Virus record (IMG/VR): IMGVR_UViG_3300026484_000465
Location: 1-56,421 of that record
Reading direction: 5' to 3' (one strand)
Length of the DNA: 56,421 bases
Source: a virus
Taxonomy: Duplodnaviria; Caudoviricetes
Below the pieces are notes generated by a model. That model searched no databases, was not told the DNA's origin, and saw only the letters and a list, made by a program, of their open reading frames with translations. A program made the translations under genes and the position numbers. Positions within the stretch are counted from its first letter, which is position 1, and every line of letters starts with the position of its first letter. Of this stretch, positions 1-53,981 are shown one piece after another.

Positions 1-247
1 CATTGTTTGTATTTACAGTATTTGGTGTTTCATTGTTTGTATTTGTATTGTATATCTTTTGCTTAAATCTTTTTCTTTCTTCTGCTTTGTTTTTTAATTT
101 TTTGATAGAAATAGGTGTTTCATTGTTTGTATTTACAGTATTTGGTGTTTCATTGTTTGTATTTGTATTGTATATCTTTTGCTTAAATCTTTTTCTTTCT
201 TCTGCTTTGTTTTTTAATTTTTTGATAGAAATAGGTGTTTCATTGTT
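1..247. repeat. Perfect 120-bp tandem repeat (at least 2 copies, truncated by window edge) with internal 30-bp sub-repeat
   Basis: Bases 1-120 are identical to 121-240; on the minus strand it encodes ETPISIKKLKNKAEERKRFKQKIYNTNTNNETPNTVNTNN. Confidence 0.97.
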
Positions 248-565
248 AAGGTTAACTTTTTGTTTTATATCTTCACCCTCAGTTATTCCTTTTTGTGATA
301 GTTTTTTTTGTGATGCCCTATATTGATCTCTTTCTGCTTTAAATTTTGTTTTAGACCCCTGTCCAGAAATATGTTTTAACTCTTTATGTTCTTCTGGGGT
401 AATTAAATCATTTGCTAGCATTTCATCTAGCTTTTTGTGTAATTTGTTTTGTTTCCCGTTAAATTCATTACTATTAACAAAATCCATTATAAACTTATTA
501 TTACCGAATCTATCTTTTATTTTATTATAATAAGCTGTTTTAATTAAGTATTGTGTTGCATTCAA
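1..565 (-). CDS. Partial ORF (runs off left end), putative internal virion protein with LIKTA leader and 40-aa tandem repeats
   Basis: Not in ORF track. TTG start at 565 after AAAAGGA RBS and TTGCAA-N17-TATAAT; translates MNATQYLIKTAYYNKIKDRF... and stays open to position 1. Confidence 0.8.
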   Translation of the reverse strand, partial: MNATQYLIKTAYYNKIKDRFGNNKFIMDFVNSNEFNGKQNKLHKKLDEMLANDLITPEEHKELKHISGQGSKTKFKAERDQYRASQKKLSQKGITEGEDIKQKVNLNNETPISIKKLKNKAEERKRFKQKIYNTNTNNETPNTVNTNNETPISIKKLKNKAEERKRFKQKIYNTNTNNETPNTVNTNN

Positions 566-593
566 TGTTTTTCCTTTTTTTTTATTTATTATA

Positions 594-1052
594 CTAAAGA
601 TTGTTTATTATTGCAATTATTTTATCTGCATCTTCTTCTGTTAATCCATTGTCTCCGTTAATATGATAGAAATTTGATTTGTTTATATAGTTGTGCTTTT
701 CTGAACATATATAAGTATCATCATCATCAATAACTAAAAATTTATCTATATTATATTTTTTAATCGTATTTTTTATTTGCCCACCTTTTATAACATGAGT
801 ATCCAATGTTGTTCCTATTATTTTGTCTTTATTTTTTAAAGATGAATTTAATAAGATTCTTTGTACTTTGTATTTTAAAGATGAGTGGATAATAACATGA
901 ACATTAGTTTTATTTATTATCAGGTCTAATAATTCTAATTTTGAATTTATACTATTTAAATCGTTATTTTTATGCGACAATATAACACCATCAAAGTCCA
1001 AAAACAATATTTTTTTACACAAAACAAAATCCTTTTTTATAGATTTTAACAT
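594..1052 (-). CDS. HAD-superfamily hydrolase (Swiss-army-knife RNA-repair-like HAD domain)
   Basis: Motif I ILFLDFDGVI, VIIHSS, FLVIDDD and C-terminal GLTEED typical of small phage HAD proteins; true start may be TTG near 1022 after AAGGA. Confidence 0.75.
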   Translation of the reverse strand: MLKSIKKDFVLCKKILFLDFDGVILSHKNNDLNSINSKLELLDLIINKTNVHVIIHSSLKYKVQRILLNSSLKNKDKIIGTTLDTHVIKGGQIKNTIKKYNIDKFLVIDDDDTYICSEKHNYINKSNFYHINGDNGLTEEDADKIIAIINNL

Positions 1053-1102
1053 TTTTTTGTTATTTAGTAAATTATTTTTTGTATTTATATTAAAAACAAT
1101 AT

Positions 1103-1146
1103 TTGACTAACAATAAATAGTAAGTTATAATAAACAAAAAAAGGAT
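1103..1146 (+). promoter_or_regulatory. Sigma70-type promoter plus RBS
   Basis: TTGACT (1103-1108), 17-nt spacer, TATAAT (1126-1131), then A-run and AAGGA before ATG 1153. Confidence 0.75.
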
Positions 1147-1152
1147 TTAGTT

Positions 1153-1575
1153 ATGCCAACTATTTCAACAATGTTTGATAAACCTTTAGAAGAAGATATT
1201 GCGTTAGAATCAAATTCTACTTCTGCTTCTAGTGTAGTTGATACTTTAAAGAATGCTGAAAACACATATAAAGCATTTTTATATTTAAGAGCTATGTATT
1301 CATTGTATCCAAATAAAGAAACAATACTTAAAATGGATACAATTAAAAGCGATGATTATGTAGAGATAGATAAACCTGTTAATGCAAACAAGATATTTGT
1401 AGTTAATACGGGAGATGGTAGTTGTCACATTAAATTCAATGATGAAGAGTTTGAGATTGTTGTTGGGAGAGAATACGAATTTCCTGTTATTCCTAAAACA
1501 GATGAAAACGATGGTGATAAGGTTGAAGTTAAAGGAACACTTTCTTATTACATGAAAAACGTACAGGAGTTTTAA
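1153..1575 (+). CDS. Hypothetical virion protein, paralog of next gene
   Basis: Promoter and RBS; N-terminus FDKPLEEDIALE...LKNAENTYKAFLY matches 1577..1984. Confidence 0.6.
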   Translation: MPTISTMFDKPLEEDIALESNSTSASSVVDTLKNAENTYKAFLYLRAMYSLYPNKETILKMDTIKSDDYVEIDKPVNANKIFVVNTGDGSCHIKFNDEEFEIVVGREYEFPVIPKTDENDGDKVEVKGTLSYYMKNVQEF

Positions 1576-4366: not shown

Positions 4367-4801
4367 ATGAGAAGTTTTAATTTAATTAAGACAGCGGCTA
4401 AGAAAGATGATGGACTTAACACAGCTGAAAAAGCTGCTATAGCAAGTGCAGGGGTTGGAGCAGCAGCTTTATCTCCTTATGCAGCAAAAAGTGTTATGAA
4501 AACATTAGCAGAAAGAAGTGGTAAAAAAGCAGATAAATTATTAGCAAAAGCTGATACTTATAAAAATGCTAACAAATCAGGATGGTTTGGTGGTCTAAGA
4601 AAAGGTCATAAAAAAGAACATGAAGCATTAATGGAAGCTTATAGAAACCAAGTAGAAGCAGCAAATAGAGCTCAAGGTAGAGCAAATTCTGTTGCAGGGT
4701 TTGTAGACGAACATGGTAAAAAATTAAAATATGCTGCAGGTGCAGGTGCTGCAGGTGCAGGAGTTGGTTTAGTATATGGACAAGGGCAAAGAAGAGGTTA
4801 A
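4367..4801 (+). CDS. Gly/Ala-zipper protein with LIKTA leader, putative internal virion (ejection) protein
   Basis: MRSFNLIKTA leader; AAIASAGVGAAAL and AAGAGAAGAGVGLVYG segments flank a basic core; own promoter and terminator. Confidence 0.65.
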   Translation: MRSFNLIKTAAKKDDGLNTAEKAAIASAGVGAAALSPYAAKSVMKTLAERSGKKADKLLAKADTYKNANKSGWFGGLRKGHKKEHEALMEAYRNQVEAANRAQGRANSVAGFVDEHGKKLKYAAGAGAAGAGVGLVYGQGQRRG

Positions 4802-35427: not shown

Positions 35428-35799
35428 ATGGATTTACTAAAAGTAGCAAACGACCCATATGCGAGTTATTTAACAAAAACAGCCGCGGTAATCAGTGATT
35501 TTGAACAAGGAAGAATTACAGCTGATGAAGCGTTTGGAGCAGCTCAAGAAATGGGGATTGCACCACAAGATTTAGTTGCAGCTCAAGAAGTTTTATTTAA
35601 AGAAGCTTCAGAAAGTGCTAGCCTTGAAAAAGTAGCATCAATTGTAGATGACCCTTATTGCACACCACTTGAAAAAGTAGCAGCGATTGTAGACGGTATT
35701 GCTGCAGGAACTGTTGATTATGATGCAGGAACTCAAGTTGCAGCTCAATTAGGATTTGATGCTCAAGACATGGAATATATCTACGCACAAACTCACTAA
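35428..35799 (+). CDS. Acidic Ala-rich protein with five L-x-K-x-A motifs, putative scaffold/core protein
   Basis: LLKVA, LTKTA, LFKEA, LEKVA, LEKVA in 123 aa; monocistronic. Confidence 0.6.
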   Translation: MDLLKVANDPYASYLTKTAAVISDFEQGRITADEAFGAAQEMGIAPQDLVAAQEVLFKEASESASLEKVASIVDDPYCTPLEKVAAIVDGIAAGTVDYDAGTQVAAQLGFDAQDMEYIYAQTH

Positions 35800-35807
35800 G
35801 CTAACCT

Positions 35808-35947: not shown

Positions 35948-36022
35948 TTTATTCCTTTATCTTAAATTTCTCTTTTAATATAGAGATTCCTTTGATAAGG
36001 GCCTAGTGCACAAATATATAAC

Positions 36023-37797: not shown

Positions 37798-37813
37798 TTT
37801 ATATCCTTAGAAT

Positions 37814-38221
37814 TTATCTAGACAAACTTCCTGCTGTTTGAATGTATTTTAATGCTTCATCTGGTTTAGAACCTCTATTAATATCAGCAATAATTTTAGC
37901 TGTTGCTAAATCAACATTACCGCCATATTGATAAATTTGATATATAGCATCTGCCATCAATTCTTTACTATTACTCATTCTAGGAGATAAAGTATAAACT
38001 GCTCCAGCCCATGCTTTTAATTTACTATCAGATACTTTTCCTAGTTCTGGATGTTTTCTTTTAGCATATTTAACAATACTACCCAATTTAACTTTAAACA
38101 TTAAATCATTTGTTTGTTGAATTACTTTTTCAGCCCCTACTAATGCAGCTGTTGTTCCACCTACTGTCATAGCAATATCTTCTAATTTGCTTTTTTCAGC
38201 TATTTTTTCTAAATAAGACAT
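37814..38221 (-). CDS. Protein with LEKIA leader and hydrophobic segment
   Basis: MSYLEKIA; IAMTVGGTTAALVGA; own TGtTATAAT promoter. Confidence 0.6.
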   Translation of the reverse strand: MSYLEKIAEKSKLEDIAMTVGGTTAALVGAEKVIQQTNDLMFKVKLGSIVKYAKRKHPELGKVSDSKLKAWAGAVYTLSPRMSNSKELMADAIYQIYQYGGNVDLATAKIIADINRGSKPDEALKYIQTAGSLSR

Positions 38222-38285
38222 CTGAATCCTTTTTTTGTATTAATTATAACATATTTTGATATAATATTTAAAAAAGGATTTTGTA

Positions 38286-41307: not shown

Positions 41308-41313
41308 AACAAA

Positions 41314-41358
41314 TTGCAAAATAAAATATTTTATGATACAATAAACTAAAAAAAAGGA
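41314..41358 (+). promoter_or_regulatory. Sigma70-type promoter plus RBS
   Basis: TTGCAA (41314-41319), N17, TGa-TACAAT (41337-41342), A-run, AAGGA. Confidence 0.7.
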
Positions 41359-41365
41359 TTAACAG

Positions 41366-41770
41366 ATGAGAGCATTTGAACTTATCAAAACTGCAGGTGC
41401 AGAATATGGATACAACGATCAAGACAGTGAGGGATTATCTCCAGCAGCTAAAGCAGCAATTGCAGCAGGACTTCTTACAGCAGGTGGAGCAGGATTAAAA
41501 TATGGTGGTCCTAAATTAGCAGATCACATGATGGGTAAAATTGACAGTTTAGCTGATGATAGTGAAAAAATGAAAAAAATGTTAGCAAAGAAAAAAGGTG
41601 ATAAAGAACTTTATGAAAATGCTAGTAAGGCTAAAGAAGCTTTAAAAGCAAAATGGCAAAAATTAAAAGACATTGGTGAACACAAACATGGTGGAAAAGC
41701 ACTTATTGGTGGAGGTGTTACAACTGCAGCTCTTGCCGGAACAGATTACTACCAAAGAAATAGAGGGTAA
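41366..41770 (+). CDS. Gly/Ala-zipper protein with LIKTA leader, paralog of 4367..4801
   Basis: MRAFELIKTA; GLSPAAKAAIAAG vs GLNTAEKAAIASAG; both end QRxRG/QRRG. Confidence 0.7.
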   Translation: MRAFELIKTAGAEYGYNDQDSEGLSPAAKAAIAAGLLTAGGAGLKYGGPKLADHMMGKIDSLADDSEKMKKMLAKKKGDKELYENASKAKEALKAKWQKLKDIGEHKHGGKALIGGGVTTAALAGTDYYQRNRG

Positions 41771-41800
41771 CCTCTCTTTTCTCTTCTTCTATATTTTCTA
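41762..41800 (+). terminator. Intrinsic terminator overlapping stop codon
   Basis: AGAGG-gtaa-CCTCT hairpin then pyrimidine tract. Confidence 0.6.
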
Positions 41801-41856
41801 CTTACTTCTTTTAATAAAATCAAAATTATGCTACAATAAATAAAAAAAGGATTACA

Positions 41857-42318
41857 ATGAATTCGAAAAGTTACTTTTTACTTAAAACAGCTGATGACAA
41901 TAATAATGGTGTCGGAACAGGGACTATTGCAGGAGGTGCTTTGGCATTAGGTGGGCTTGGGAGTATGGGATACGGACATAATTTAATTAATAAAGCTACA
42001 CCTGATACTCCACTATTTTCAAAAGGAAATCAACTTGGTACATTAGGATATGGTGCTTCAAATATCCAGCAAGCTAAAGCAAGTGGGGAAGCAAACACAA
42101 AAGCCATTAATGATTTTGTTGAGGGTCATGGTGGAAAAGAAAAATTTGATGTTAACAAGCTAAATGAAGTAGAAAAAGGGAAATACAATAAAATGTTAAC
42201 AGATGGTGAAAATATAGCTAATCTAGGAAAAGGTTCTAAATTTATGCATTATGGAAAAATTGGCGGACTACTTGGTGGCGGAATGATGTTAGGGTCAATG
42301 TTAACCAATAATAATTAA
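41857..42318 (+). CDS. Glycine-zipper protein with LLKTA leader
   Basis: MNSKSYFLLKTA; GTIAGGALALGGLG and GGLLGGGMMLG; TGcTACAAT promoter. Confidence 0.7.
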   Translation: MNSKSYFLLKTADDNNNGVGTGTIAGGALALGGLGSMGYGHNLINKATPDTPLFSKGNQLGTLGYGASNIQQAKASGEANTKAINDFVEGHGGKEKFDVNKLNEVEKGKYNKMLTDGENIANLGKGSKFMHYGKIGGLLGGGMMLGSMLTNNN

Positions 42319-42330
42319 AAAGGATATAAA

Positions 42331-42585
42331 ATGAAGATAGAACAAATTTCTGAACTATTAGAAAAAACAGCTGCTCATATAGAGATGATTGAGAATGAAA
42401 ACAACATGTTAAGAAAGAAATTAGAAGAAAGTATTTCTGCAGTTAATTTAAACAAAGAAGCTTCTTTTGATTTTTCAGACACAGCGAATGATGACTATGG
42501 TTCTTTGGGGCAACCTTCTAATTATTCCCCGAGCAATCAAATTTCTTCTAGTCAAAAATTAGAAGAATTCTTAAATAATTTATAA
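42331..42585 (+). CDS. Small coiled-coil protein, putative scaffold-associated
   Basis: LEKTA and LNKEA motifs; two genes upstream of capsid. Confidence 0.55.
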   Translation: MKIEQISELLEKTAAHIEMIENENNMLRKKLEESISAVNLNKEASFDFSDTANDDYGSLGQPSNYSPSNQISSSQKLEEFLNNL

Positions 42586-42672
42586 AAAAACTATCTATAA
42601 ATAAGAGCATTTCTTATTTTTGTTTTTTTTGTATAAAATAATGGTAATAAAACCAAAAAAAAGGATAAGTAG

Positions 42673-43059
42673 ATGAAGAATATTGATATTGTAAGAGGTT
42701 ATAGAACCTTCAGTCATGAAGACTTATATGATGCTGACGCAACTGTAACAATCGTGCCAGGAGATATTATAGGCCTTAATGGAAACAAAATAACATTAGA
42801 AAAAACGCATAAAGAAGCTGGAATAGCTCTTGAATCAAACAAAGATATTGCTGGTAATAAACCAAGTGGGAAAATTCCAGTATGTGTTAGTAATTTTGTT
42901 GTAAGATTTTATAGACCAGTTCCAGATGAAGTTAATTTGGGTGATCCTGTTACAGTTATTGATGGAAAGCCATCTAAAACAGACGATGATCATACAGTAA
43001 TTTGGGGATATGTTACAAAAATAGACGAAACATCTTTTGATGTTAGAGTAAATTATTAA
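42673..43059 (+). CDS. Putative head decoration/cement protein
   Basis: 128-aa beta-rich, IVPGDII...GIALE...GKIPV...LGDPVTVIDGK...WGYVT; immediately upstream of capsid gene. Confidence 0.65.
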   Translation: MKNIDIVRGYRTFSHEDLYDADATVTIVPGDIIGLNGNKITLEKTHKEAGIALESNKDIAGNKPSGKIPVCVSNFVVRFYRPVPDEVNLGDPVTVIDGKPSKTDDDHTVIWGYVTKIDETSFDVRVNY

Positions 43060-43071
43060 AAAGGATAAAAC

Positions 43072-44007
43072 ATGGGTATTAATGTAGAAACTCCAGTAAT
43101 TCAACAAAACACAGGGTTAATTAAAGCAGCTTATGCTGGTGGTGACCTTTTAAAACAAGCTATGGATAACAGTACATACTTTATTAGAGATAAAGTAAGA
43201 GAACTTGGTTTTGCTAGAAAAGTAATTGAACCTATTTTTGTTACAAGTGCAGATTTAGACAGAGTTCCAAACAATGAGCAACCTGCTATCATCTTAGAAA
43301 AAGATATCGAAAGTAGAGGGATGACAGTGCCATTCAGAGGGCAAGGAGAACAAAGATATTGGGAAAGAGAAGACATGGTTGTTAATTTCCAAAAAATTGA
43401 ATCAGAAAGAATTAACAAATCTAAATTCGAAATGATGACTTCTAAAACTCCATATACTGAAGTTCTTAAAAAAAGAATTGTTGAAGAGGTTCAAAAAGTT
43501 GAAGATGAAACTTTAATGAACGGTTTCAATGCTATCATAGAGAAAGCAGAAGAAGAAGCTCCTGGTACACAATATCAAGAATTAGAGGGTGGATTAAGCA
43601 AAACAAACATTAAAATATTAATACAAATGCTTTCAAGATTAAAAATGATCCCGCCAACAGGACCAAAACCAAAAATCTTAATGACACAAAATCTAAAATT
43701 AGAATTAATTGAATTAGGAATGATTGAAATTGGTGATTCTAATGTTGGAAAATATTGGAATGAAGGTGTAGTTGGAGTAGATAGATTATTTAATGTCCCT
43801 GTAGTATCTACAATTAAAAATGATTTAGTAAAAGATAATGAAATGTTTATTGTTGCTCCTCAAGATTACTTTGGAAGATTCTTTATTTTACAAGATCACA
43901 CAATGGTAATCAAAACAGAAGCTGATATGATGAATATGTGGACATATGCAGCTATGGGTATGGGATTCGTTAATACAAAAGGTGTATGTAAAGTTACATT
44001 ATCTTAA
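43072..44007 (+). CDS. Major capsid protein (HK97-fold)
   Basis: 311 aa; FIRDKVRELGFARKVI, long backbone helix EVQKVEDETLM, KILMT, LFNVPVVST, terminal MGMGFVNTKGVCKVTL; strong hairpins downstream. Confidence 0.75.
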   Translation: MGINVETPVIQQNTGLIKAAYAGGDLLKQAMDNSTYFIRDKVRELGFARKVIEPIFVTSADLDRVPNNEQPAIILEKDIESRGMTVPFRGQGEQRYWEREDMVVNFQKIESERINKSKFEMMTSKTPYTEVLKKRIVEEVQKVEDETLMNGFNAIIEKAEEEAPGTQYQELEGGLSKTNIKILIQMLSRLKMIPPTGPKPKILMTQNLKLELIELGMIEIGDSNVGKYWNEGVVGVDRLFNVPVVSTIKNDLVKDNEMFIVAPQDYFGRFFILQDHTMVIKTEADMMNMWTYAAMGMGFVNTKGVCKVTLS

Positions 44008-44008
44008 T

Positions 44009-44062
44009 GTAACTCCTCTTTTGAGGATTACAAAATAATATACGTATTGTTTTGTAATTTTT
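44009..44062 (+). terminator. Two overlapping hairpins after capsid gene
   Basis: GTAACTCCTC-tttt-GAGGATTAC and TTACAAAATAATA-tacg-TATTGTTTTGTAA followed by Ts. Confidence 0.6.
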
Positions 44063-44076
44063 AAAAAGGATAATGG

Positions 44077-45030
44077 ATGTTTTTTAACAATTCTCAAAGA
44101 TATGTTTCTATAGCAAAACAAATTATTAACGAAATAAATCATGGGGGAGATAACCCAGAAGAATTATTAAATAAGTATGCTAAAGAATACAATTTAAATA
44201 ATAATATGAAACAAAGAGTTGTAGAAGAATACAATGTAAATATGTTTTTAAGTAAATTAAAAGATGGTAATCACCAAGAGCATTATGTGTTATTGAATCC
44301 TGTTATTAATGAAACACAAAAATGGAATTCTATTATTGAGAAAAATAATAAAGAAAATGAGCATAAAAAGAATATGACCAAGACAGCCTTTTACAATGAA
44401 GAAGCTAATATTGTATTTAAAAACAATTCAATGGAATATGAGCATGACCCACTTTTAAATGGTTCTTTTTCTAACAAAACATTGGTAAGTTCTTTTGAGT
44501 ACGGGGACACCTCTGATTTACTTAAAAATGCTTCTTACAAAGAAAAACTCAGAGAAGAAGAAGGATTTAAAGAATTAGTAAAAACTGCTCATTATAAAGG
44601 TCATGAAGTTATAAATCAATTAGCAAATGATCTAACTAAAGTAGCAAATATTTCAACAGGAGCTACAAAAACCATAATTTATGATTTAATTAAAGAAGGG
44701 CATGAGGATATTGCTAATACTGTTATGGAAAATTGCAAATATAAACCAAACGAAATACTCGGGGCAAAAATGACAGATGGTATATTTGAACAAGATTTAC
44801 CTCTATTAAAAACATCTCAAGAACTTATAAAAGAAGCAACTATAAGTAAACTAATTATGAGAGTAATATCAGAAAAAGGTATGAACCATATCGGAAGTGC
44901 TTTAAATAAAATAAAAACTATGGCAGGGCCTAAAAATAGAGCAAAAATATATATGGCTTATGTAATGAATAAATTTTTTACAGAAAAAAAACCTGGTGCA
45001 TTACATAATGACTTTATTCAAAATGCTTAA
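44077..45030 (+). CDS. Putative head core/scaffold protein with multiple K-x-A motifs
   Basis: MTKTA, LLKNA, LVKTA, LTKVA, LIKEA (plus LLKTS); follows capsid gene. Confidence 0.55.
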   Translation: MFFNNSQRYVSIAKQIINEINHGGDNPEELLNKYAKEYNLNNNMKQRVVEEYNVNMFLSKLKDGNHQEHYVLLNPVINETQKWNSIIEKNNKENEHKKNMTKTAFYNEEANIVFKNNSMEYEHDPLLNGSFSNKTLVSSFEYGDTSDLLKNASYKEKLREEEGFKELVKTAHYKGHEVINQLANDLTKVANISTGATKTIIYDLIKEGHEDIANTVMENCKYKPNEILGAKMTDGIFEQDLPLLKTSQELIKEATISKLIMRVISEKGMNHIGSALNKIKTMAGPKNRAKIYMAYVMNKFFTEKKPGALHNDFIQNA

Positions 45031-45041
45031 AAGGATATAAT

Positions 45042-45176
45042 ATGGAAAACAATCAAAATTTAATTAAAATAGCTCAGGTAGTTAAAGAGCACGCAAAAAA
45101 ATGGTATTTAAAAAAAATGGCAGCGTTAAAAATAATAGACACTATAGATGCATATAAAGAGGCAATGAAGAACTGA
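45042..45176 (+). CDS. 44-aa protein with LIKIA leader
   Basis: Not in ORF track. AAGGA RBS; MENNQNLIKIAQVVKEHAKKWYLKKMAALKIIDTIDAYKEAMKN. Confidence 0.6.
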   Translation: MENNQNLIKIAQVVKEHAKKWYLKKMAALKIIDTIDAYKEAMKN

Positions 45177-45204
45177 TTTACTAATTCAGCTTTCTCAAGC
45201 CATA

Positions 45205-45230
45205 GGCCCCAATTTTAATTTATGGGGACC
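45205..45230. terminator. Hairpin between convergent genes
   Basis: GGCCCCA...TGGGGACC inverted repeat. Confidence 0.45.
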
Positions 45231-45758
45231 TTACTGCTCTTTTTTGCTGTTATTGACTGCTTTGTGTGCAAAATAAGCTTGAGCTGCCCCTAAAGTGCCT
45301 ATTCCACCCATAGTTTGTCCTTGTAATTTAGCTCTTTGTTTTAACATATTTTTAATTTTATCTTTACTTTGGCCTAATTCCTTAAGAATTTCCTCTTCTG
45401 ATGAATCTCCAAGTTCTTTTGTAGCTTGTTTGTAGTCACGAATACGGTGTAACCCTTTTCCTAAAGCACCTGCCATTACACCTATTCCCGTACTTCTGTT
45501 TATTTCATCATCACTAGACCCTATTTTTTTTGCCAATAATGGAGCAGCTATAGACCCTCCTAATAAACCTAATTCAGTTGGTAAAGAAAAAGTCTTATAT
45601 TCACCTTTACCCTGTAAAACATTAACAAGATAAGGAATGTTTTCTTGCAATAGAACCCCTGACGCAACTCCACCAGCTGCAGAAAGTCCATCACCTATCA
45701 TCTTTTTTTTATCAGAATCTTTTTTGTCCGCTGTCTTAATTAAATTAAAACTTTTCAT
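45231..45758 (-). CDS. Glycine-zipper protein with LIKTA leader
   Basis: MKSFNLIKTA; four Gly-rich hydrophobic segments. Confidence 0.7.
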   Translation of the reverse strand: MKSFNLIKTADKKDSDKKKMIGDGLSAAGGVASGVLLQENIPYLVNVLQGKGEYKTFSLPTELGLLGGSIAAPLLAKKIGSSDDEINRSTGIGVMAGALGKGLHRIRDYKQATKELGDSSEEEILKELGQSKDKIKNMLKQRAKLQGQTMGGIGTLGAAQAYFAHKAVNNSKKEQ

Positions 45759-45806
45759 TGTTAATCCTTTTTTTAGTTATAATTATATCTAAAAAAAAGG
45801 ATATTT

Positions 45807-47252
45807 ATGGCATTAAATAATTTTGTTAATATAATAACAGACATCTATAACCCAGCCTCTGTGGATAGTTTGTTTGAGCAATACGGAGTAGAAGGATTCA
45901 GTGGAACAGATGCTAGTCTAGTTTCTATGAATGCACCAGCTTGGTTATTTGTTGTTGCATACAAAACTCAAGCAGACAACGGAGATGATGACGGAAAAAT
46001 TAAAGATTCTGTTTCAAATATTTTATTAAAGAAAAATAGTGACAACATTGTTCTATACAAGGAACACAACTATAGTAGTCAAAATATATTGGCACAAGCA
46101 CTTTTATATTTTAGAGGTTCTAATTATAAAGTAGATAGTATCATTGATTATTACAACGATGTGACTGGTGATGATAAGACAATTGAAACTATATCACATC
46201 AAGACACAAATAATGCATCAGTTGCAACTATAATATTTTCAGATGTTAAATATATTAAAGGGTTGGATGTTGGGAAAACCATTTCGACATACAAAGCTGC
46301 TTTTATCGATGTTAATTACAAAAATGATTACCCTTTAGCAGGGTTAATATTTAAGGCCTTGTTTAATGATGATATACAAGATAAAGTTAAAGAAATTATT
46401 GATAAATTAAAAGACAATGATACTTCTGGTAGGTTTGGTAAACACGATTCTATTTTTAAGAAATTTTCAACAAATAATACCGAACCAGTAATAGAAGAAC
46501 TATGTCAATTAATATCTGTGTTATCAAATGAAAAAGCAGACGAAGTCTTAAGTAAAGACGCTTATTTATATGATATATTAGCAAGTTTAACAGACAATGT
46601 TAATACATCACCAACCCCTATTATTGAATCTATAGATTTTAGTAAATGTACTGGTTTTTCATATTTAGAAACAGGTTTCTCTCTTTCTACTTATAAAAAT
46701 AAGGTGGCAGATTACTACCCTGTATTTGGCTTAATGAATGTTTACATTTACAACAGAGGGGCAACAATTAACACTGATGTTATTAATGCTTTCATTGATA
46801 ATAATTTAAGTAATCCATACACATTTCCATATGAAGATACAATAGTGTCTGGAGTTAATTTAATATCTCAATTAGCTTACACTTGGTCTTTTGATAATGA
46901 AATAGGAGGGTTGTCTGATTTATTAACAAAACTATTTTCTCAAATAGAAACAAATATTACATTTGACGACGGAGACTCTAATTTTCAAAAAACAGTAAAA
47001 ATTAATGCTGTAGCAGGGTTTGTATCTGAGTTTACAGAAGGTTCGCAAATAAATATGTATGGAGCAATTAATATTTTATTTAATAAAATAAATGCTAAAC
47101 ATAAAAAATGGTGCAAAGATAATAACAAGAATTTTGATGATTATGATTCTGATGAAGGATATGGTAGTGACAGAGATAAAGTTTTTGGTTTATACTATAT
47201 TGATTTTGACAGTTATAAAAAGTGGTGTCAAAACTTTGGAAAAGACTTTTAG
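45807..47252 (+). CDS. Hypothetical acidic protein
   Basis: 481-aa ORF with promoter and RBS. Confidence 0.6.
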   Translation: MALNNFVNIITDIYNPASVDSLFEQYGVEGFSGTDASLVSMNAPAWLFVVAYKTQADNGDDDGKIKDSVSNILLKKNSDNIVLYKEHNYSSQNILAQALLYFRGSNYKVDSIIDYYNDVTGDDKTIETISHQDTNNASVATIIFSDVKYIKGLDVGKTISTYKAAFIDVNYKNDYPLAGLIFKALFNDDIQDKVKEIIDKLKDNDTSGRFGKHDSIFKKFSTNNTEPVIEELCQLISVLSNEKADEVLSKDAYLYDILASLTDNVNTSPTPIIESIDFSKCTGFSYLETGFSLSTYKNKVADYYPVFGLMNVYIYNRGATINTDVINAFIDNNLSNPYTFPYEDTIVSGVNLISQLAYTWSFDNEIGGLSDLLTKLFSQIETNITFDDGDSNFQKTVKINAVAGFVSEFTEGSQINMYGAINILFNKINAKHKKWCKDNNKNFDDYDSDEGYGSDRDKVFGLYYIDFDSYKKWCQNFGKDF

Positions 47253-47557
47253 GTCTCTTCTTCCCCTATTGTTTTTTCTAAATAATCTACAACTCTAATA
47301 CACTCTCCATTTTGTGTCCAACTTTCTTTTTCTCTTATAATATGAAATCTATTTGGGTTATGAAGTATATTTGTCATAAATTCTGCAAATTCCGATGCAG
47401 AAGTATCTTCTGCTATTAAAAATACTTTAGTTTTGTATTCAAACCCTTTAAAAGGGTTAGTTTTCATTTCTGCCCCACTTGGCCTAGGCATTCCACTTAA
47501 ATGTGTTTGTAACCTCTCGGCACTATTATTTAATATTTTATTTATTTCTTGAAACAT
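47249..47557 (-). CDS. Hypothetical protein
   Basis: AAGG RBS; last gene of a coupled minus-strand run. Confidence 0.55.
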   Translation of the reverse strand: MFQEINKILNNSAERLQTHLSGMPRPSGAEMKTNPFKGFEYKTKVFLIAEDTSASEFAEFMTNILHNPNRFHIIREKESWTQNGECIRVVDYLEKTIGEEET

Positions 47558-47805
47558 GTTTTACCTTTTTCTTCTATTAGATGGTTATATAGTATGATTG
47601 AAACTCTTCTGTATTTTTTAAAATCATTCAGAGTGATATTGGAGAAAGGAATTTTGTCACTTAAACCGATAAAGAACATAACAATATTATAAATCTCATT
47701 AGTTGTCTTGAATCTATTATCTGATATAAAAGATAATTCATCAGGTGTTAGTTTTTTTTGTTTATGTAGATTTAATAACTTATTGTTAAATTGCTTTAAG
47801 GTCAT
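47542..47805 (-). CDS. Hypothetical protein
   Basis: ATGA overlap with upstream gene. Confidence 0.5.
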   Translation of the reverse strand: MTLKQFNNKLLNLHKQKKLTPDELSFISDNRFKTTNEIYNIVMFFIGLSDKIPFSNITLNDFKKYRRVSIILYNHLIEEKGKTCFKK

Positions 47806-48062
47806 TTAACCCCTTTAAAAGAGGACACCTCTGATAATGCCTTTCTTGCCCCATCATCGGAATTAAGCATCCCAACTCCTCCCATTAGAAGTGAACCACG
47901 ACCAATTACTTTATTCAGCGTTGATGTGTTACCGAATCCATTATTGTGTATTAGATTCTTACTAAAGTTACCTAACATTTTAACACCACTTATAGCCGGA
48001 CTAAGTAAATTAGGAAATGCTTTTTTTTCCAAATAAATATGTGCTTTCATTTTTTCACGCAT
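47802..48062 (-). CDS. Small protein with LEKKA motif and Gly-rich segment
   Basis: HIYLEKKAF; GSLLMGGVGML. Confidence 0.55.
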   Translation of the reverse strand: MREKMKAHIYLEKKAFPNLLSPAISGVKMLGNFSKNLIHNNGFGNTSTLNKVIGRGSLLMGGVGMLNSDDGARKALSEVSSFKGVK

Positions 48063-48330
48063 CCCATTTTAAAATTTTATCTGATTTATGAAATGCAATA
48101 GTTTTCATTGCGGGAAGTGTTTTTTTACAGTTTGTTAAAGCACATCTTTTTTTACTTATTGTTTTTACATAAAATTTACCAAGTCCCTTTAGATAAATAA
48201 CACCTTCATTTTTTCCTCTCATATTCTTTACTATATTAATAAAATTATCCATAACTTTTCTAACCACAACTTCATCAACATCTGTATTCCTGGATATATC
48301 TTTAACCAGTTCAGTATATATCTTCTTCAT
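48055..48330 (-). CDS. HU/IHF-family DNA-binding protein
   Basis: 91 aa; ELVKDIS...VMDNFINIV...IYLKGLGKFYVK...LPAMKTIAF. Confidence 0.75.
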   Translation of the reverse strand: MKKIYTELVKDISRNTDVDEVVVRKVMDNFINIVKNMRGKNEGVIYLKGLGKFYVKTISKKRCALTNCKKTLPAMKTIAFHKSDKILKWDA

Positions 48331-48427
48331 ATGTAGAACCTTTTTTCATATATTTTAACAAAATAATAAAAACATTACAATAAAAAAAATAAATTTGCTA
48401 TAATAATCACAAAAAAAAGGATAGAAA

Positions 48428-48925
48428 ATGGATAGAAATGAACTATTATCTGAGATAGTTGCTTCAGCTGAACAAGAAGTAATGGGGCTTGATAAAACAG
48501 CTAGTTATACTGAAAATCCTGAAGCTGTAAAAAAAATACCTGTGGACAAACCAACAAGCGTTATTTCTAAATTAAAAGAAAGAAGCTTTCACAATCAGGC
48601 AACTTATACAGAGGATTTACATGAAATAAACAATGTAGGAGGCGGGCCAAATACTTCTCCTGAAATGGTTTACCCTAAGCTATCTACTGACAAAGAGACA
48701 AATATAACAAAACTAGCTCATTCTAGTGATGAAATAGTTTCTTTAATAAGAGAAGCTGAACAAGAATTAAATAAAAAAGCTTCTGTTGATGAGACAAATA
48801 TTTCTTATTTTTTAGAAAAAACAGCAGCAGAAACGATAGCTGAAATTAATGATTTAGAAAAAACTGCTGAAGAATTTGGGACTATGGTCGCTAGAGCATT
48901 TTTAAGTGAAATAGGGAGATATTAA
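48428..48925 (+). CDS. Acidic protein with five K-x-A motifs, putative scaffold
   Basis: LDKTA, ITKLA, LNKKA, LEKTA, LEKTA; TGcTATAAT promoter. Confidence 0.6.
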   Translation: MDRNELLSEIVASAEQEVMGLDKTASYTENPEAVKKIPVDKPTSVISKLKERSFHNQATYTEDLHEINNVGGGPNTSPEMVYPKLSTDKETNITKLAHSSDEIVSLIREAEQELNKKASVDETNISYFLEKTAAETIAEINDLEKTAEEFGTMVARAFLSEIGRY

Positions 48926-49086
48926 TGAAAAAAAATACTTCAAAAGTAGGTAATGAATTAAGAAAGTTAGCAAGCAATATATCTTCAGGGAAAATACAAA
49001 TTGAAGGTAACTTATCTTTTAGAGAACTTTCTAAAACTGCTACAATTAATAGATTACAAATATTAATGGGTGTCATTAAAAACTAA
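48925..49086 (+). CDS. 53-aa protein with two K-x-A motifs
   Basis: Not in ORF track. TAATG overlaps at both ends; LRKLA and LSKTA. Confidence 0.65.
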   Translation: MKKNTSKVGNELRKLASNISSGKIQIEGNLSFRELSKTATINRLQILMGVIKN

Positions 49087-50555
49087 TGGCCATAACGGTA
49101 GATGATGACATCATTTATGTGGATGATGGAGAATATTCTTTTAATGACATATATGAAAAAGTAAAATCAGACTTTAATGATGATGCTCAAAAAGCAGGTA
49201 ACAACTTTTATTATTTTAACTACAATATTGTAGTGGGTAAAAATACTGCGGCTACATTAAAAGATTTGAATGTATCAGTTTGGATTGATAAAGAAAATTT
49301 TCAAATACATCAAGACTCAACTCTCCAATTAGGGGAGTTAATTGATAACAAGCCTGCCAATGGATGCAAGATAAATATGCCTAACGTTAAATTAGGATAT
49401 GGTTTTGGATGTTCCAATAAAGATGGTGATTATACATTGTCTGGTGACTTGTATATCTACGATAGTTATCTTGATATATTTGGCTTTTGGGGGTTTTTTA
49501 ATGACCCAGAAAAACAAAAAGTAGAAATAATAGATACCACAATAAATGGGTTTGGAAGATTTTCTGGTAAAGAATCTGTAATTGAAAATGTTATTTTTGT
49601 TAATGCTCATAAAAAATACGGGACAATATCAACTCTCGGAGCAATAAATAAAATAAGCAATATTCAGATAAATCACACAGATAAAGATAATGATGGTGTG
49701 TGTTTTTATTTTAATGGAGATGTATCTGGAAATTGTTTAATTAATAATATTTCCTTACCTGGAGATTATAAAACTTTACTTTATTGTGAAGAGGCTGATA
49801 ATGATAAGTTTTTCACAATTCTTAACACAAATATTGAGAATGTGGAATGTGATTTTAAGGATGAACACAGTTACTTGTTAATAAAGAATTCTATTACCTT
49901 ATTACCCGATGAGGATGATTATAGTGTACAGATATTCGATTCATCAAACAATAAAATAGATGAGTTTAATACGAACGATAGAACCACAACAGAATTATTA
50001 TATAGAAAGAAAAATAAAGATAATGATATTTTTTACGAAAATTATAAGGTAATTATAAACAATAATATAGAATTCAGAATAACACCTTCTAACGCTCTAA
50101 ATATTCCTATACAATCTATCTATAAAAAAATGAGACCATTGTGGGATACTCCATTTTTCTATGGAGAAGAAGAAACTATTTATTTAGGAGATCTATACTC
50201 ATTTATTGTTAAATCTTATAGCAAACCAGAAATAAAACTATATAAAACAGGTAACGGAGTTATGTGTGAACCAGATAATATAACTGAACAAAGTGTAGAA
50301 AATTTATGGAAAGTAACTTTTTTGATAGGAGAATTGGGGGAAGAGACTGAAGATGGAGAAAAATGGGTTGATGGTGTTTATTATTTAAAAGGGATAGATA
50401 ATAGTAGTGAACAGGTATTTACTAAAGTAATTTATATCAGAAGAGAAGAAGAAAAAGATTCTAATAAAACAGATGTTAATAAAATAATTAATTTAATTAA
50501 AGACACTTCCGGTAATCTTTCTTCAAATAATAATGGCGGTAAAATAATTATGTAA
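49086..50555 (+). CDS. Acidic beta-rich (possible beta-helix) virion protein
   Basis: LYIYDSYL, VEIIDTTI, IENVIF, ISNIQI, INNISL rungs. Confidence 0.5.
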   Translation: MAITVDDDIIYVDDGEYSFNDIYEKVKSDFNDDAQKAGNNFYYFNYNIVVGKNTAATLKDLNVSVWIDKENFQIHQDSTLQLGELIDNKPANGCKINMPNVKLGYGFGCSNKDGDYTLSGDLYIYDSYLDIFGFWGFFNDPEKQKVEIIDTTINGFGRFSGKESVIENVIFVNAHKKYGTISTLGAINKISNIQINHTDKDNDGVCFYFNGDVSGNCLINNISLPGDYKTLLYCEEADNDKFFTILNTNIENVECDFKDEHSYLLIKNSITLLPDEDDYSVQIFDSSNNKIDEFNTNDRTTTELLYRKKNKDNDIFYENYKVIINNNIEFRITPSNALNIPIQSIYKKMRPLWDTPFFYGEEETIYLGDLYSFIVKSYSKPEIKLYKTGNGVMCEPDNITEQSVENLWKVTFLIGELGEETEDGEKWVDGVYYLKGIDNSSEQVFTKVIYIRREEEKDSNKTDVNKIINLIKDTSGNLSSNNNGGKIIM

Positions 50556-50624
50556 AGCATCTTTTTGTAAAAGAAAATAAAATAGGTATAATACAACCCT
50601 TACATCAAAAAAAAAGGATAAAAA

Positions 50625-51272
50625 ATGACAAAATGGTTTATAAACAAATCAAATAGATTTTTGATTACTACTGACAGAGACAGTATGAATGTTAACGATT
50701 GGGAAGTTTTTATAACTGACATAGTTGAGAAAACTTCTAGTGAAGAAACATCAAATGTTGAGATAAGTGAAATTATTGTTGATGTTGAAGATGTCGAAGG
50801 TGCTATAGCTTCAGATTCTGCTGCTGGAACAAGAGTTATCCATTTGGATACAGATAAAGGGGCTAAATTTAAAGTTGGAGACAAAATAAAAATACCTACA
50901 GTTGATGGTGATGATTACAGAGAAATAAAATCAATTAGTGGTGACGATATTGTTATTTACAAAAAATTATCTGCTGATGTTAAAGCTGATACAGATGACA
51001 ATGGAGAAAATGATAATAAAATTACATTAGTTGGTAACACAGGTGACTATGTTGTAAAAGTTACATCTTCTGATTTGTCTACACCATTAGAATCAGGTAA
51101 AGATTACCAAGTAATGGTACAATCTAGAGACTTACAAATGGATATGAAATCTGAAGTATTCCATGTAACACCTTATGATATAGATGAGTTGGGTGATGAC
51201 TTAGATGAAATCAAAGGTAAGATTGATGAATTAAGCAACAATACTACAACATCGGGAAGAATATTTATTTAG
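50625..51272 (+). CDS. Acidic virion protein
   Basis: Own promoter and RBS; FKVGDKIKI...REIKSISGDDIVI domain as in tail proteins; C-terminal short coiled coil. Confidence 0.55.
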   Translation: MTKWFINKSNRFLITTDRDSMNVNDWEVFITDIVEKTSSEETSNVEISEIIVDVEDVEGAIASDSAAGTRVIHLDTDKGAKFKVGDKIKIPTVDGDDYREIKSISGDDIVIYKKLSADVKADTDDNGENDNKITLVGNTGDYVVKVTSSDLSTPLESGKDYQVMVQSRDLQMDMKSEVFHVTPYDIDELGDDLDEIKGKIDELSNNTTTSGRIFI

Positions 51273-51286
51273 TAAAAGGATAGAAA

Positions 51287-51655
51287 ATGGCTGATAAAAA
51301 TTATAGATTCTCGGAATGTTATATTAGAGTAAAGAGTCAAGCATTTTTTATTTCTAAAACAAATTTAGTTGGTGAGAAACTTCCGGAAGGGATTCAAGTT
51401 ACAACTAACACTATTACAGGTATGTTGATAAAAAGAGTAGGGACTAAACAAGTATTGTTTATTGATAGTTCTTTAGAACAAAAAGGGAGATTTGATTACT
51501 CTTTTGTTTTATTTGATGAAGCAGACAAAAACAAAAAAGTTTTAGAACAAAATAAAAAAGTACTATCAAATCTTGTTAATGATCTATTTGTAGATATTCC
51601 ACCATTCTTTCCAGTAGAAGATAGTGAAGATAGTGAAGAGAGTGAAAGTAAATAA
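51287..51655 (+). CDS. Hypothetical protein
   Basis: AAGGA RBS; acidic EDSEDSEES tail; pyrimidine-rich terminator-like tract follows. Confidence 0.6.
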   Translation: MADKNYRFSECYIRVKSQAFFISKTNLVGEKLPEGIQVTTNTITGMLIKRVGTKQVLFIDSSLEQKGRFDYSFVLFDEADKNKKVLEQNKKVLSNLVNDLFVDIPPFFPVEDSEDSEESESK

Positions 51656-51735
51656 TCTCACTTACTTTCTTCTCCTCTTTTTTTGAATTCATTTATGTTA
51701 TAATATGATAAAAATAAATTATTAAAGGATAATAA

Positions 51736-52497
51736 ATGAATTCTACTTCTTTTTTATACAAAAAGGCGGGGCTTTATGAACAGCAATCCAATAGAGAACT
51801 GCCTCCCATAAAAACAACTCCACCAGAAGAAAAACAAAGTATTTTGCAAAACATTAAAAATAAATTTAATAAAGCAACTGACCTTGTTGCAACAAAAGCA
51901 GAAAATGGAATATTAAGACAACAACTTAAAAGTCAAACTGATAATGTTGACGAATGGAAAAGCAGACATGCAAATGTGTTTGAAGAACTAAATAAAACAA
52001 AAACTTCTTTGGATGATTTAGAAGCTTCTAAAATGGAATTAGAGGCTAGGCTAAAAAGACAGATTGGGGCATTAAGAAGATTAAAACATGAAGATAAAAT
52101 TCAAAACAAACAACAAGTTATGGCATTGGAAAATCAAATAAATCATTTATCAGGTCAAATATCTGCTCACTCAAAAACTATTTCAAACTACAAACAACAA
52201 TTAAAGTCAGCAGAGGAGATTATTAATGATAATACTCAAGATATAATACAGAAAGAAAATACAATAAAAACATTAAAAACAACTCTTGATGGACACAAAG
52301 AAGAAATAGTTGGTTTAAATAAAAGATTGGATGAACATAAGAACACTATAGAAGAGCTAACTAAAACTCTTGGAAAAACAGAAACTTCAAATAAGTATCT
52401 TAAATGGGGAGCAGGAATTGCTATCCCAACAGTAGGAATGGGAGGATATTTAATGGGTAAATCAAGTAATTCAACAGGAGGAAATAATGCTAACTAA
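51736..52497 (+). CDS. Coiled-coil protein with LYKKA leader and C-terminal Gly-rich membrane segment
   Basis: MNSTSFLYKKA; long heptad region; WGAGIAIPTVGMGGYLMG. Confidence 0.65.
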   Translation: MNSTSFLYKKAGLYEQQSNRELPPIKTTPPEEKQSILQNIKNKFNKATDLVATKAENGILRQQLKSQTDNVDEWKSRHANVFEELNKTKTSLDDLEASKMELEARLKRQIGALRRLKHEDKIQNKQQVMALENQINHLSGQISAHSKTISNYKQQLKSAEEIINDNTQDIIQKENTIKTLKTTLDGHKEEIVGLNKRLDEHKNTIEELTKTLGKTETSNKYLKWGAGIAIPTVGMGGYLMGKSSNSTGGNNAN

Positions 52498-53152
52498 ATA
52501 CATTGACGGAGATGCTTACTTAGTAACGCCAGCACATGCTAAACATTGTAATGGTAGTTGTGATTGGTTACAAAAAGAAGCTAGTGTAACACCAGAATCA
52601 GTACATTTTTTTGACAATTTAAAACCAAAACCAGACCATGTGTATCTATTAACAATAGCAATGACAGCAGGAGAATTTTTTGGAGCTAACAAAAATGGAG
52701 ACTATTTTAGAGAACAGGATCTAAAAAAATATTACAAAGATTTTAAAGGTGCTGGAGTTTTCTGGAATCACGACAACAAAGATATGAGTAAATCAAGTGG
52801 AAAAGTTATTGAGGCTTTCTACAATGAACATATGCATAGAGTTGAATTAATTATAGAGTTCCATAAAGATAAAGCTAGATATATTCCTAGTTATATAAAA
52901 GATAAAAAACCTATAGCAGTTTCAATGGGATTAAAAACATCATCGGAAGTATGTTGTATATGTGGTAATGTTACAAGAAATAGTTATGCTACCAGATGTA
53001 GTCATCTTAAATATCAAATGAATCAAGTTCTTGATGATGGAAGAAAAGTTTATGCTATAAGTAATACACCTCTTAAGATATTTGATATTTCTGTTGTTTT
53101 CAATCCAGCTGACAGAACTGCTTATACTTTATACACAAAATCAGGAACTTAA
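52487..53152 (+). CDS. Prohead maturation protease (HK97/assemblin-like) with Cys/His zinc-binding insert
   Basis: NKNGDYF, VFWNHD (His), GKV, AVSMG (Ser), CCICG...CSH, FDISVVFNPAD. Confidence 0.75.
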   Translation: MLTKYIDGDAYLVTPAHAKHCNGSCDWLQKEASVTPESVHFFDNLKPKPDHVYLLTIAMTAGEFFGANKNGDYFREQDLKKYYKDFKGAGVFWNHDNKDMSKSSGKVIEAFYNEHMHRVELIIEFHKDKARYIPSYIKDKKPIAVSMGLKTSSEVCCICGNVTRNSYATRCSHLKYQMNQVLDDGRKVYAISNTPLKIFDISVVFNPADRTAYTLYTKSGT

Positions 53153-53174
53153 TCTAAAAAAAGAACAGGAGGGA

Positions 53175-53456
53175 TTAACCCACTAGGGTCATTGTCCCAT
53201 CTTTGTTCAAATTATAAGCGATACAATCGCTTATATCCTGTCCCTTTTTCCCCAACAACACTTTGAACTGGGCTTCTTTTGCCCCGTTCCATGTTAGGGT
53301 CGCTGGGTCTATCGACGCCAGCTGATTCCCTTCAGTGGTGAAGAGAGACCATTTACCCTCTTGCACCCTTACTCTGAAGGGAACTGGATCTCCCCATGGG
53401 AGCTGCAATTCTGCAACCCCCATAGAGGAGAACAACTTTAAGTCAATTTTTGCCAT
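53175..53456 (-). CDS. Hypothetical protein of atypically high GC
   Basis: Start moved to ATG 53456 after AAGGAG; 93 aa. Confidence 0.65.
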   Translation of the reverse strand: MAKIDLKLFSSMGVAELQLPWGDPVPFRVRVQEGKWSLFTTEGNQLASIDPATLTWNGAKEAQFKVLLGKKGQDISDCIAYNLNKDGTMTLVG

Positions 53457-53549
53457 TTTTTCTCCTTTTTTTTTGGATTTTTCGGCTATATATATATAAC
53501 CCATTAAGTAAGTTTTTTTTGATATAATAATACAAAAAAAAGGATTACA

Positions 53550-53981
53550 ATGAATGCGAGTGAATTTATTAAGGTGGCCTCTAACAAAGACGTAGACAAA
53601 AGATATGACATAAATCCATATGATGTAGCAGAGTTAGCAGGAGCCGCGGGTACGGTAGGCGGGGCAGGGTATGCCGGATATAACCATATTAAAAAGCACA
53701 ATGATAGGGAAGCTATTAAAGAAAACATGTTAGAAAAAGCTTTAAAAAACAGTTCTGATAAAGAGAAAAAAAGCATTATGAAAGCTATTGAGCAAGATGC
53801 TGAAGATTACTTTAAAAACAAAACTGAAAATATTTTAAGCTCATACAAAGCCTCTGGGGTTGAAAAAGAATTTAAAGATTTAGCACAAAGAGAACATGGA
53901 ATGCCAAAAAAAATAGCATTAGGAAGTATGCTTGGTGGAGGCGCTGTTATGATTGGTTCTAACTTGATGAATGATGAATAA
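53550..53981 (+). CDS. Glycine-zipper protein with FIKVA leader
   Basis: MNASEFIKVA; LAGAAGTVGGAGYAG and IALGSMLGGGAVMIG; TGaTATAAT promoter. Confidence 0.7.
   Translation: MNASEFIKVASNKDVDKRYDINPYDVAELAGAAGTVGGAGYAGYNHIKKHNDREAIKENMLEKALKNSSDKEKKSIMKAIEQDAEDYFKNKTENILSSYKASGVEKEFKDLAQREHGMPKKIALGSMLGGGAVMIGSNLMNDE

Follow-up and report, generated by a model that had tools for sequence, protein, structure and literature searches.

Head maturation by proteases of the gp21/assemblin fold has been described for bacteriophage T4, for the phages phiKZ, 201phi2-1 and SPN3US and for the herpesviruses. T4 gp21 cuts after Glu at L/I-x-E (PMC5694885). The internal proteins of T4 are described as small, basic and fast-evolving, with a roughly 10-residue leader ending in the protease's motif, and the same motif is reported on the capsid protein, on multiply cut core proteins and near the N-terminus of the protease (PMC9026906). 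In phiKZ (gp175), 201phi2-1 and SPN3US (gp245) many head proteins are reported to be processed at one short motif, S/A/G-x-E or A-x-E, which is likewise cut after Glu; the propeptides are mostly long and hold several redundant sites, and the protease processes itself (PMC5694885, PMC10052503). The herpesvirus assemblins (UL26 family) are described with sites in which Ala is followed by Ser or Thr, and the sites YLQA-T and VQA-S of the pseudorabies virus (PRV) enzyme end in Ala (PMC4498786). Here we analyze a stretch of 56,421 bases, the virus record IMGVR_UViG_3300026484_000465, referred to below as the window, in which leaders of 7-15 residues ending in hydrophobic-x-K-x-A recur on small proteins. 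We consider it likely that this motif is the recognition and processing motif of a head protease of the gp21/assemblin fold, and that short leaders are removed from about ten small proteins.

The window has a G+C (GC) content of 24-30% and a CheckV completeness estimate of 35%; it would represent about one third of a roughly 160-kb myophage genome of an Arash-like lineage. Its predicted protease is 44-45% identical to those of Salmonella phage Arash and the Vibrio phages D69, D181 and D148, and its predicted capsid protein is 33.6% identical to the annotated major capsid protein of Arash (E 1e-41). A megablast comparison of positions 36000-56000 with the phage collection gave zero matches, and near-identical DNA was not found there. 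For comparison we used G001, a complete genome of 161,461 bp with direct terminal repeats and 67% identity in the protease, and the partial genomes G002 and G003. The gene set consisted of 66 non-overlapping open reading frames (ORFs) called in this analysis. The motif was counted as [LIFMVY]-x-K-x-A, an N-terminal site being a motif that starts within the first 12 residues of an ORF, and 2000 within-protein shuffles served as the null.

The leader-bearing genes of the window are listed with the start of each predicted protein.

2..565, minus strand: leader protein, MNATQYLIKTA, with a TTG rather than an ATG start; net charge +17; runs past the left end of the window
4367..4801, plus strand: leader protein of 144 residues, MRSFNLIKTA; Gly/Ala 34%; net charge +14; within an otherwise motif-poor block
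37814..38221, minus strand: leader protein of 135 residues, MSYLEKIA; N-terminal site kept in the G001 and G002 orthologues
41366..41770, plus strand: leader protein of 134 residues, MRAFELIKTA; Gly/Ala 31%; net charge +6
41857..42318, plus strand: leader protein of 153 residues, MNSKSYFLLKTA; Gly/Ala 26%
45042..45176, plus strand: ORF of 44 residues, MENNQNLIKIA; second site at residue 23; both sites in register in G001 (57 residues) and G002 (50 residues)
45231..45758, minus strand: leader protein of 175 residues, MKSFNLIKTA; net charge +8
47802..48062, minus strand: leader protein of 86 residues, ...HIYLEKKA, the motif being residues 11-15 from the first ATG; net charge +8
51736..52497, plus strand: scaffold-like coiled-coil protein of 253 residues, MNSTSFLYKKA; Gly-rich hydrophobic C-terminus; overlaps the protease gene just downstream
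53550..53981, plus strand: leader protein of 143 residues, MNASEFIKVA

Ten such N-termini had been quoted in an earlier note on this DNA, and all ten (10/10) were located where it had placed them. N-terminal sites occur in 12 of the 66 ORFs, against 1.64 ± 1.26 expected (maximum 8), and the leaders thus stand out from a shuffled background. The note's observation that similarity ends after the Ala is also borne out: with the leaders removed from nine of the proteins, the best pairwise BLASTP match in a nine-sequence database has E = 0.012. A single paralogous family as the origin of the leader proteins is unsupported at this value. Counted over four genomes (37 N-terminal sites), the leaders are mostly 8, 10 or 11 residues long, and in seven of the eight window leaders of 10-12 residues the hydrophobic position is preceded, at a distance of one or two residues, by an aromatic one.

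The codons for L, K and A vary between leaders, hence the conservation lies at the protein level. A TGnTATAAT-like box and an A-rich Shine-Dalgarno region precede the leader genes, but also the leaderless genes 1153, 4914, 22064, 38286, 45807 and 55462. Because these upstream elements are common to leaderless genes and the codons are variable, the shared start is a protein feature, and a nucleotide element was rejected as its explanation. Boxes of this kind, followed by an A-run and by AAGGA 6-8 bases before the start, precede many genes throughout the window, among them 54040, whether or not these have a leader; judged by sequence, they are probably phage late or middle promoters with a strong ribosome binding site.

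The window's leader proteins range from 44 to 253 residues and are rich in Gly/Ala, with weakly hydrophobic stretches (Kyte-Doolittle about 1.0-1.3). They are basic: the median net charge per 100 residues is +4.5 for leader carriers and -1.4 for other ORFs in the window, and +7.6 and -1.4, respectively, in G001. They are also fast-evolving, six having no detectable orthologue in G001. For the 45231 ORF a single homologue was found among 5.8 billion proteins, with 76% identity and the leader retained as MRSFYLIKTA. A set of strongly basic proteins with leaders, distinct from that of the window, is dispersed over the G001 genome. Ten leader or multi-site proteins compared with Pfam and PHROGs gave no family above the cut-off; the 51736 ORF has sub-threshold coiled-coil or scaffold matches only (Phage_scaffold, E 0.0051, below the cut-off). 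The C-terminal half of the protein at 2-565 (minus strand), at the extreme left of the window, contains two tandem copies of a repeat some 42 residues long, which could be genuine or an assembly effect at the contig end.

The motif is unevenly distributed. In the whole window there are 45 sites against 27.0 ± 4.9 in the shuffles (66 ORFs), and the 29 ORFs of 35428-53981, the head module, hold 35 of them, where 11.1 ± 3.3 are expected (shuffle maximum 23). Beyond 54000 there are 0 sites in 5 ORFs. In an unbiased scan of all a.b.c patterns L.K.A ranks first in 35428-53981 (28 seen, 2.9 expected), and it is outside the top 12 patterns of the 1153-35373 block. Among K-x-A tripeptides, 30 of 59 have Leu at -2 in the head set versus 2 of 30 in the other block. 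L-x-K-[T/V/I/E/K]-A is the prevailing form in the window, and S, A or G frequently comes next. In 1153-35373 (29 ORFs, the 4367 ORF left out) 8 sites were counted and 13.5 ± 3.6 expected, with N-terminal sites in 0 ORFs. The earlier note had said that the tail genes lack the leader; the absence stands, whereas the word tail depends on a single lead. Since 11 large ORFs scanned from 1999-37797 gave no Pfam or PHROGs family above the cut-off, the label derives solely from the ORF of 712 residues at 24558-26696, which lies near tail sheath clusters in the Atlas feature search (scores 0.91-0.92) and is 46% identical to its G001 orthologue.

The gene that is central to the proposed reading is the following.

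52487..53152, plus strand: head maturation protease of 221 residues, standalone form, with L28-Q-K30-E-A32 just before the catalytic domain; phrog_18299

The earlier note had taken this ORF for the head protease, and both sequence and model agree. It matches phrog_18299, 'head maturation protease', with E 1.2e-11, and no Pfam family at E <= 0.01. Neither the protease nor the capsid protein sequence matched any chain in the PDB at E <= 1, hence fold searches were needed. An AlphaFold2 model built from 14 homologues has a predicted local distance difference test score (pLDDT) of 76.6. The top three Foldseek matches of this model are chains of T4 gp21 (5jbl; E 2.6e-3, probability 1.00). In VIA-align the model superimposes on T4 gp21 with Z 10.0 (root-mean-square deviation 2.9, 130 residues aligned) and on the herpesvirus proteases with Z 8.9 (varicella-zoster virus), 8.3 (PRV) and down to about 6. 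The modelled structure has the characteristic gp21/assemblin fold, and the protease is a distant branch of this fold beyond the reach of the Pfam model. A candidate triad is formed by H95, S146 and H173; H95 and S146 are present in 135 of 135 aligned homologues and H173 in 130 of 135, and the first two are also invariant in the 14-sequence alignment. Three cysteines, C156, C159 and C171 (window 52952-53005; residues 156-173), are invariant in 135/135 homologues and adjoin the candidate catalytic His173. From the sequence, this cluster resembles an inserted metal-binding knuckle, placed between S146 and H173, and H173 could belong to it instead of to the triad.

L28, K30 and A32 are invariant in the 14 homologues, which share 37-70% identity. 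An exhaustive profile search with the protease gave 4028 clusters at E <= 0.001, from which the best 149 representatives, one per 50%-identity cluster, were taken as a sample. A site lies within the first 60 residues in 138 of these 149, with the consensus [L/F/M]-[E/V/T/I]-K-T-A-[S/A]. Most homologues are fusions of 450-650 residues with a long, site-rich C-terminal part. In 134 diverse homologues the sites concentrate in two stretches, residues 20-39 with 123 sites and 200-229 with 141, whereas residues 50-199 hold about 30; a site at the C-terminal boundary of the protease domain is present in 117 of the 134. The C-terminal extensions hold 409 sites versus 89.4 ± 8.6 in shuffles, a comparison that overstates the independence of the counts, as do all our shuffle nulls on homologues, because kinship among these is ignored. 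In the window and its close kin, the standalone proteases terminate at most 1-3 residues from the Lys of the boundary site in the fused forms. A complex prediction for protease residues 33-221 with capsid residues 1-60, made with alignments, scored 0.05, where the mark to be reached is 0.32, and speaks neither for nor against the proposed reading. Several homologues (P0049, P0056, P0146 and others) are 940-1100 residues long and match the profile in two stretches. Two long homologues are named 'LAGLIDADG family homing endonuclease' and 'intein/homing endonuclease', and P0014 leaves the alignment right after Cys156; by their sequences, the head protease gene seems to be interrupted by inteins in some members of the clade.

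The motif was also found at the start of the capsid protein.

43072..44007, plus strand: major capsid protein of 311 residues, with tandem motifs at 16-20 (LIKAA) and 26-30 (LLKQA)

On the basis of its model (pLDDT 80.7) this protein has the HK97 fold; among its 306 PDB matches at E <= 0.001 are encapsulins and chains of the HK97 prohead and head, with probability 1.00. Across 24 homologues K28 and A30 show at least 90% conservation, and 98 of 120 homologues have a site within the first 50 residues. In the capsid protein of Arash the candidate site occupies residues 25-29. Sites beyond residue 50 occur in 9 of the 120 only, against 45.2 ± 5.4 in shuffles; the capsid sequences are related, therefore this avoidance in the body of the protein is a trend and not a probability.

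Besides the capsid protein and the protease, four proteins of the head module carry the motif two to six times, and three of the four are acidic.

35428..35799, plus strand: acidic protein of 123 residues, net charge -15, with five sites, the first of which is the 7-residue leader MDLLKVA
42331..42585, plus strand: acidic protein of 84 residues, with sites at residues 10 and 40
44077..45030, plus strand: protein of 317 residues whose gene follows directly on that of the capsid protein; six sites, starting at residues 31, 100, 148, 167, 186 and 250
48428..48925, plus strand: acidic protein of 165 residues, net charge -13, with five sites

When window proteins are aligned with their G001 and G002 orthologues, at about 35-50% identity, most sites are in register while their flanks diverge. 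All five sites of the 35428 family are in register in both G001 and G002. In the 44077 family, with 36% identity to G001, this holds for five of the six window sites in at least one of the two orthologues; in the 48428 family both orthologues keep the three C-terminal sites in place, and G001 alone keeps a fourth. The 44077 protein gave no family in Pfam or PHROGs. Its sequence makes it a candidate core or scaffold protein that would be cut into small pieces. A Peptidase_S77 match in its G002 orthologue (E 0.0069, 11.3 bits, below the cut-off) was taken as chance. An acidic protein of 757-775 residues, encoded at 40076-42403 (minus strand) in G001 and 27686-29959 (plus strand) in G002, has the motif at 18-22 and several times later, and has no counterpart in the window; judging by sequence, it may be a large head protein, such as the portal, that carries a short propeptide. 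The earlier note had described the motif as an N-terminal leader. The leaders are real, but this description missed the internal and multi-copy sites and those on the capsid protein and on the protease itself.

The head region has an equal motif density in Arash (about 53% GC), in G003 (48.5% GC) and in Vibrio phage D69. The motif is kept in genomes from 28% to about 53% GC, and its density is independent of base composition. One 16-kb region of Bacillus phage G is as rich in the motif, which it carries on the gp19 protease, on the portal gp14 and at the N-termini of two further proteins, gp13 and gp20. The phages that share the motif are annotated on Salmonella or on Bacillus, or are Vibrio phages isolated from seawater.

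Of the described systems, T4 with gp21 and the capsid targeting sequences of IPI, IPII, IPIII and Alt is alike in several respects. The modelled protease has the same fold, and in the window, too, unrelated small basic proteins share a short leader that ends in the motif assigned to the head protease. Since the carriers are basic and poorly conserved, they match the description of the T4 internal proteins (PMC9026906). In contrast to T4, the motif is hydrophobic-x-K-x-A with no requirement for Glu, which is one of several residues at variable places, and the leader proteins have no sequence similarity to any PHROG or Pfam family. Targeting and cleavage have been demonstrated in T4, whereas for the window phage we infer both from the genes alone. 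The phiKZ group resembles the window phage as large myophages in which one short motif serves many head proteins, but it differs in the Glu of its motifs and in its mostly long propeptides, where the window phage has many leaders of 7-15 residues. The herpesvirus assemblins have a related fold according to the model, and most relatives of the window enzyme are fused to a long C-terminal part with a site at the domain end that resembles the assemblin release site (PMC4498786). As in the herpesvirus sites, Ala is often followed by Ser. Unlike in YLQA-T and VQA-S, where Leu or Val stands two before the Ala, an invariant Lys has this place here and the hydrophobic residue is two further back; the window protease is, moreover, a short standalone form.

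The motif is read as the site of the 52487 protease because sites lie at the edges of the protease domain, because the capsid protein has a site at its start and avoids it in the body, and because core-like proteins hold many sites. The earlier note had already made this assignment, which the invariance before the protease domain and the positions kept in orthologues favor further. In the mechanism that we propose, the precursor proteins would co-assemble within the prohead core. The protease would free itself at the site before its domain, and fused relatives would also cut a second site after the domain. It would then remove the first 20-30 residues of the capsid protein, chop the multi-site proteins, three of the four being acidic, into small peptides able to exit the head, and take the leaders of 7-15 residues from about ten small, mostly basic, Gly/Ala-rich proteins. 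Freed of their leaders, the basic proteins would remain inside the head alongside the DNA, like the internal proteins of T4. Cleavage after Ala (A↓S/A) is favored with fair confidence over cleavage after Lys, because a small residue follows and conservation then ends, because Thr or Val stands between Lys and Ala, and because herpesvirus sites end in Ala. In the 138 first sites of the proteases the residue after Ala is Ser in 63, Ala in 34 and Gly in 9 (106/138 small), and the information content falls off one residue past the Ala. Ser follows Ala in 72 of 142 boundary sites, and in first and boundary sites alike the residue between K and A is mostly the beta-branched T or V.

Whether the short leaders are also capsid-targeting sequences, by analogy to T4, stands at close to even chances, perhaps slightly below. 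Alternatively, the motif may be the protease site only: the proteins would enter by their Gly/Ala segments or their charge and the leader would merely be trimmed inside. The shortest leaders barely exceed the motif (MDLLKVA, MSYLEKIA and, in G001, MLLQKIA), which leaves little room for a separate targeting determinant, and the internal sites of the multi-site proteins use the identical five residues. Nevertheless, we regard a leader without targeting as unlikely, given the aromatic residue upstream of the motif in the leaders of 10-12 residues and the 10-residue leader of T4, in which targeting and processing determinants are described as shared (PMC9026906); it would also be hard to see why some ten unrelated proteins should keep a removable leader that is inert until its removal. 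Conservation and enrichment alone do not separate cutting from binding, and the motif could therefore be an uncut docking motif that binds a head component (the capsid interior, the portal or the protease as a carrier) and holds the core proteins. This is very improbable: sites are placed at both boundaries of the protease domain and nearly absent within, standalone proteases end where the fused forms have their site, the motif is avoided in capsid-protein bodies, and the multi-copy sites in core-like proteins match the scaffold degradation described for T4, phiKZ and SPN3US.

The Prp cysteine protease trims ribosomal protein L27 as well as the capsid and scaffold proteins of staphylococcal phage 80-alpha. 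Short shared N-terminal extensions on dispersed phage genes resemble this case, and a host enzyme such as Prp or a signal-type peptidase might remove the leaders. However, the phage's own head protease carries the motif at its own boundaries, the leaders have no hydrophobic signal-peptide core, and the motif is common to phages of Salmonella, Bacillus and seawater Vibrio. Peptidase_Prp was matched in none of G000, G001 and G002 (0/3), a search that a host-encoded enzyme would escape. On these grounds a host enzyme is scarcely to be expected. Equally hard to credit is the absence of any signal, with the shared start as a remnant of gene duplication or as a translation or promoter element at the nucleotide level. 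The first 30 bases of the 4367 and 45231 ORFs are indeed almost identical, and every leader gene is preceded by much the same promoter-like -10 box and A-rich Shine-Dalgarno region. Against this stand the same upstream elements on the leaderless genes, the differing L, K and A codons, the mutual dissimilarity of the proteins without their leaders, the recurrence of the motif internally and in unrelated proteins, and its retention across the range of GC content.

Several points weigh against a processing motif of this specificity. Every characterised phage member of the gp21/assemblin protease family is described as cutting after Glu (PMC5694885), and the Lys/Ala motif departs from this precedent; a cut at L-x-K↓, which is possible, would parallel the L/I-x-E↓ of T4. 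The Pfam model Peptidase_S77 (PF03420) does not match the protease and has no match in G000 or G001. A strict site is missing at the expected place in 11 of 149 protease homologues and in 22 of 120 capsid homologues, several of the latter having x-I-K-E-A. The motif is not enriched in mycobacteriophage I3, a more distant relative whose protease is about 29% identical, and hence does not extend to the entire protease family. Some N-terminal matches in G001 look like chance, for example LLKTA in the Walker-A region of the terminase. With their weakly hydrophobic Gly/Ala segments the leader proteins could be membrane-associated and have a role outside the head. Cleavage itself is deduced from sequence for every member. 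A term search of the main text of the Arash paper found neither 'protease' nor 'cleav'. In the literature searched, the coverage of which is incomplete, no description of a K-x-A head-protease motif was found; by term search, the phage G preprint uses fully tryptic searches and reports no processing sites, and a jumbo-phage review does not mention 'prohead protease'.

A few observations concern other parts of the window and its lineage. The ORFs at 1153-1575 and 1577-1984 are small adjacent paralogues, each of which matches both members of an adjacent pair in G001. They adjoin an ORF of 687 residues that is conserved in its first 190 residues only, a pattern typical of fibre or receptor-binding modules. 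The ORF of 1065 residues at 30100-33297 has a Met-rich start with six consecutive Met, which reads as a His run on the opposite strand and is caused by a simple-sequence stretch at the 5' end. Among the capsid homologues, P0225 (55% identity) bears the name of a Sulfurimonas single-cell genome, and further ones are named from Thermodesulfobacteriota and Desulfovibrio records; these names hint that Campylobacterota or sulfur-cycle bacteria may be the hosts of low-GC members of the clade. The relative Arash is reported to have virion-associated RNA polymerase subunits.

IPI of T4 is an anti-restriction protein among fast-evolving small basic proteins. The leader carriers are of the same class and are therefore candidates for early host-takeover or counter-defence factors. 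More broadly, we tentatively propose a portable targeting-and-release tag, hydrophobic-x-K-x-A↓(S/A), used across a very large and almost wholly uncultured clade of big myophages, in which P1 would have switched from Glu to Ala as in the herpesviruses. This clade would comprise the 4028 protease clusters, including those of Arash, Vibrio phage D69 and perhaps phage G. Its size makes the finding notable, as does its testability: since cultured relatives exist (Arash, the Vibrio phages D69, D148 and D181, and phage G), the idea can be tested directly. The conserved Lys/Ala motif would be a new predicted specificity for the phage gp21/assemblin family, possibly with the same P1 as in the herpesviruses. 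It would allow the head-internal and probably ejected proteins, the start of the mature capsid protein and the self-release point of the protease to be predicted from sequence only. If this is true, the set of packaged and ejected proteins of thousands of unknown phages would become readable from their sequences, and the tag could serve for packing foreign cargo into heads.

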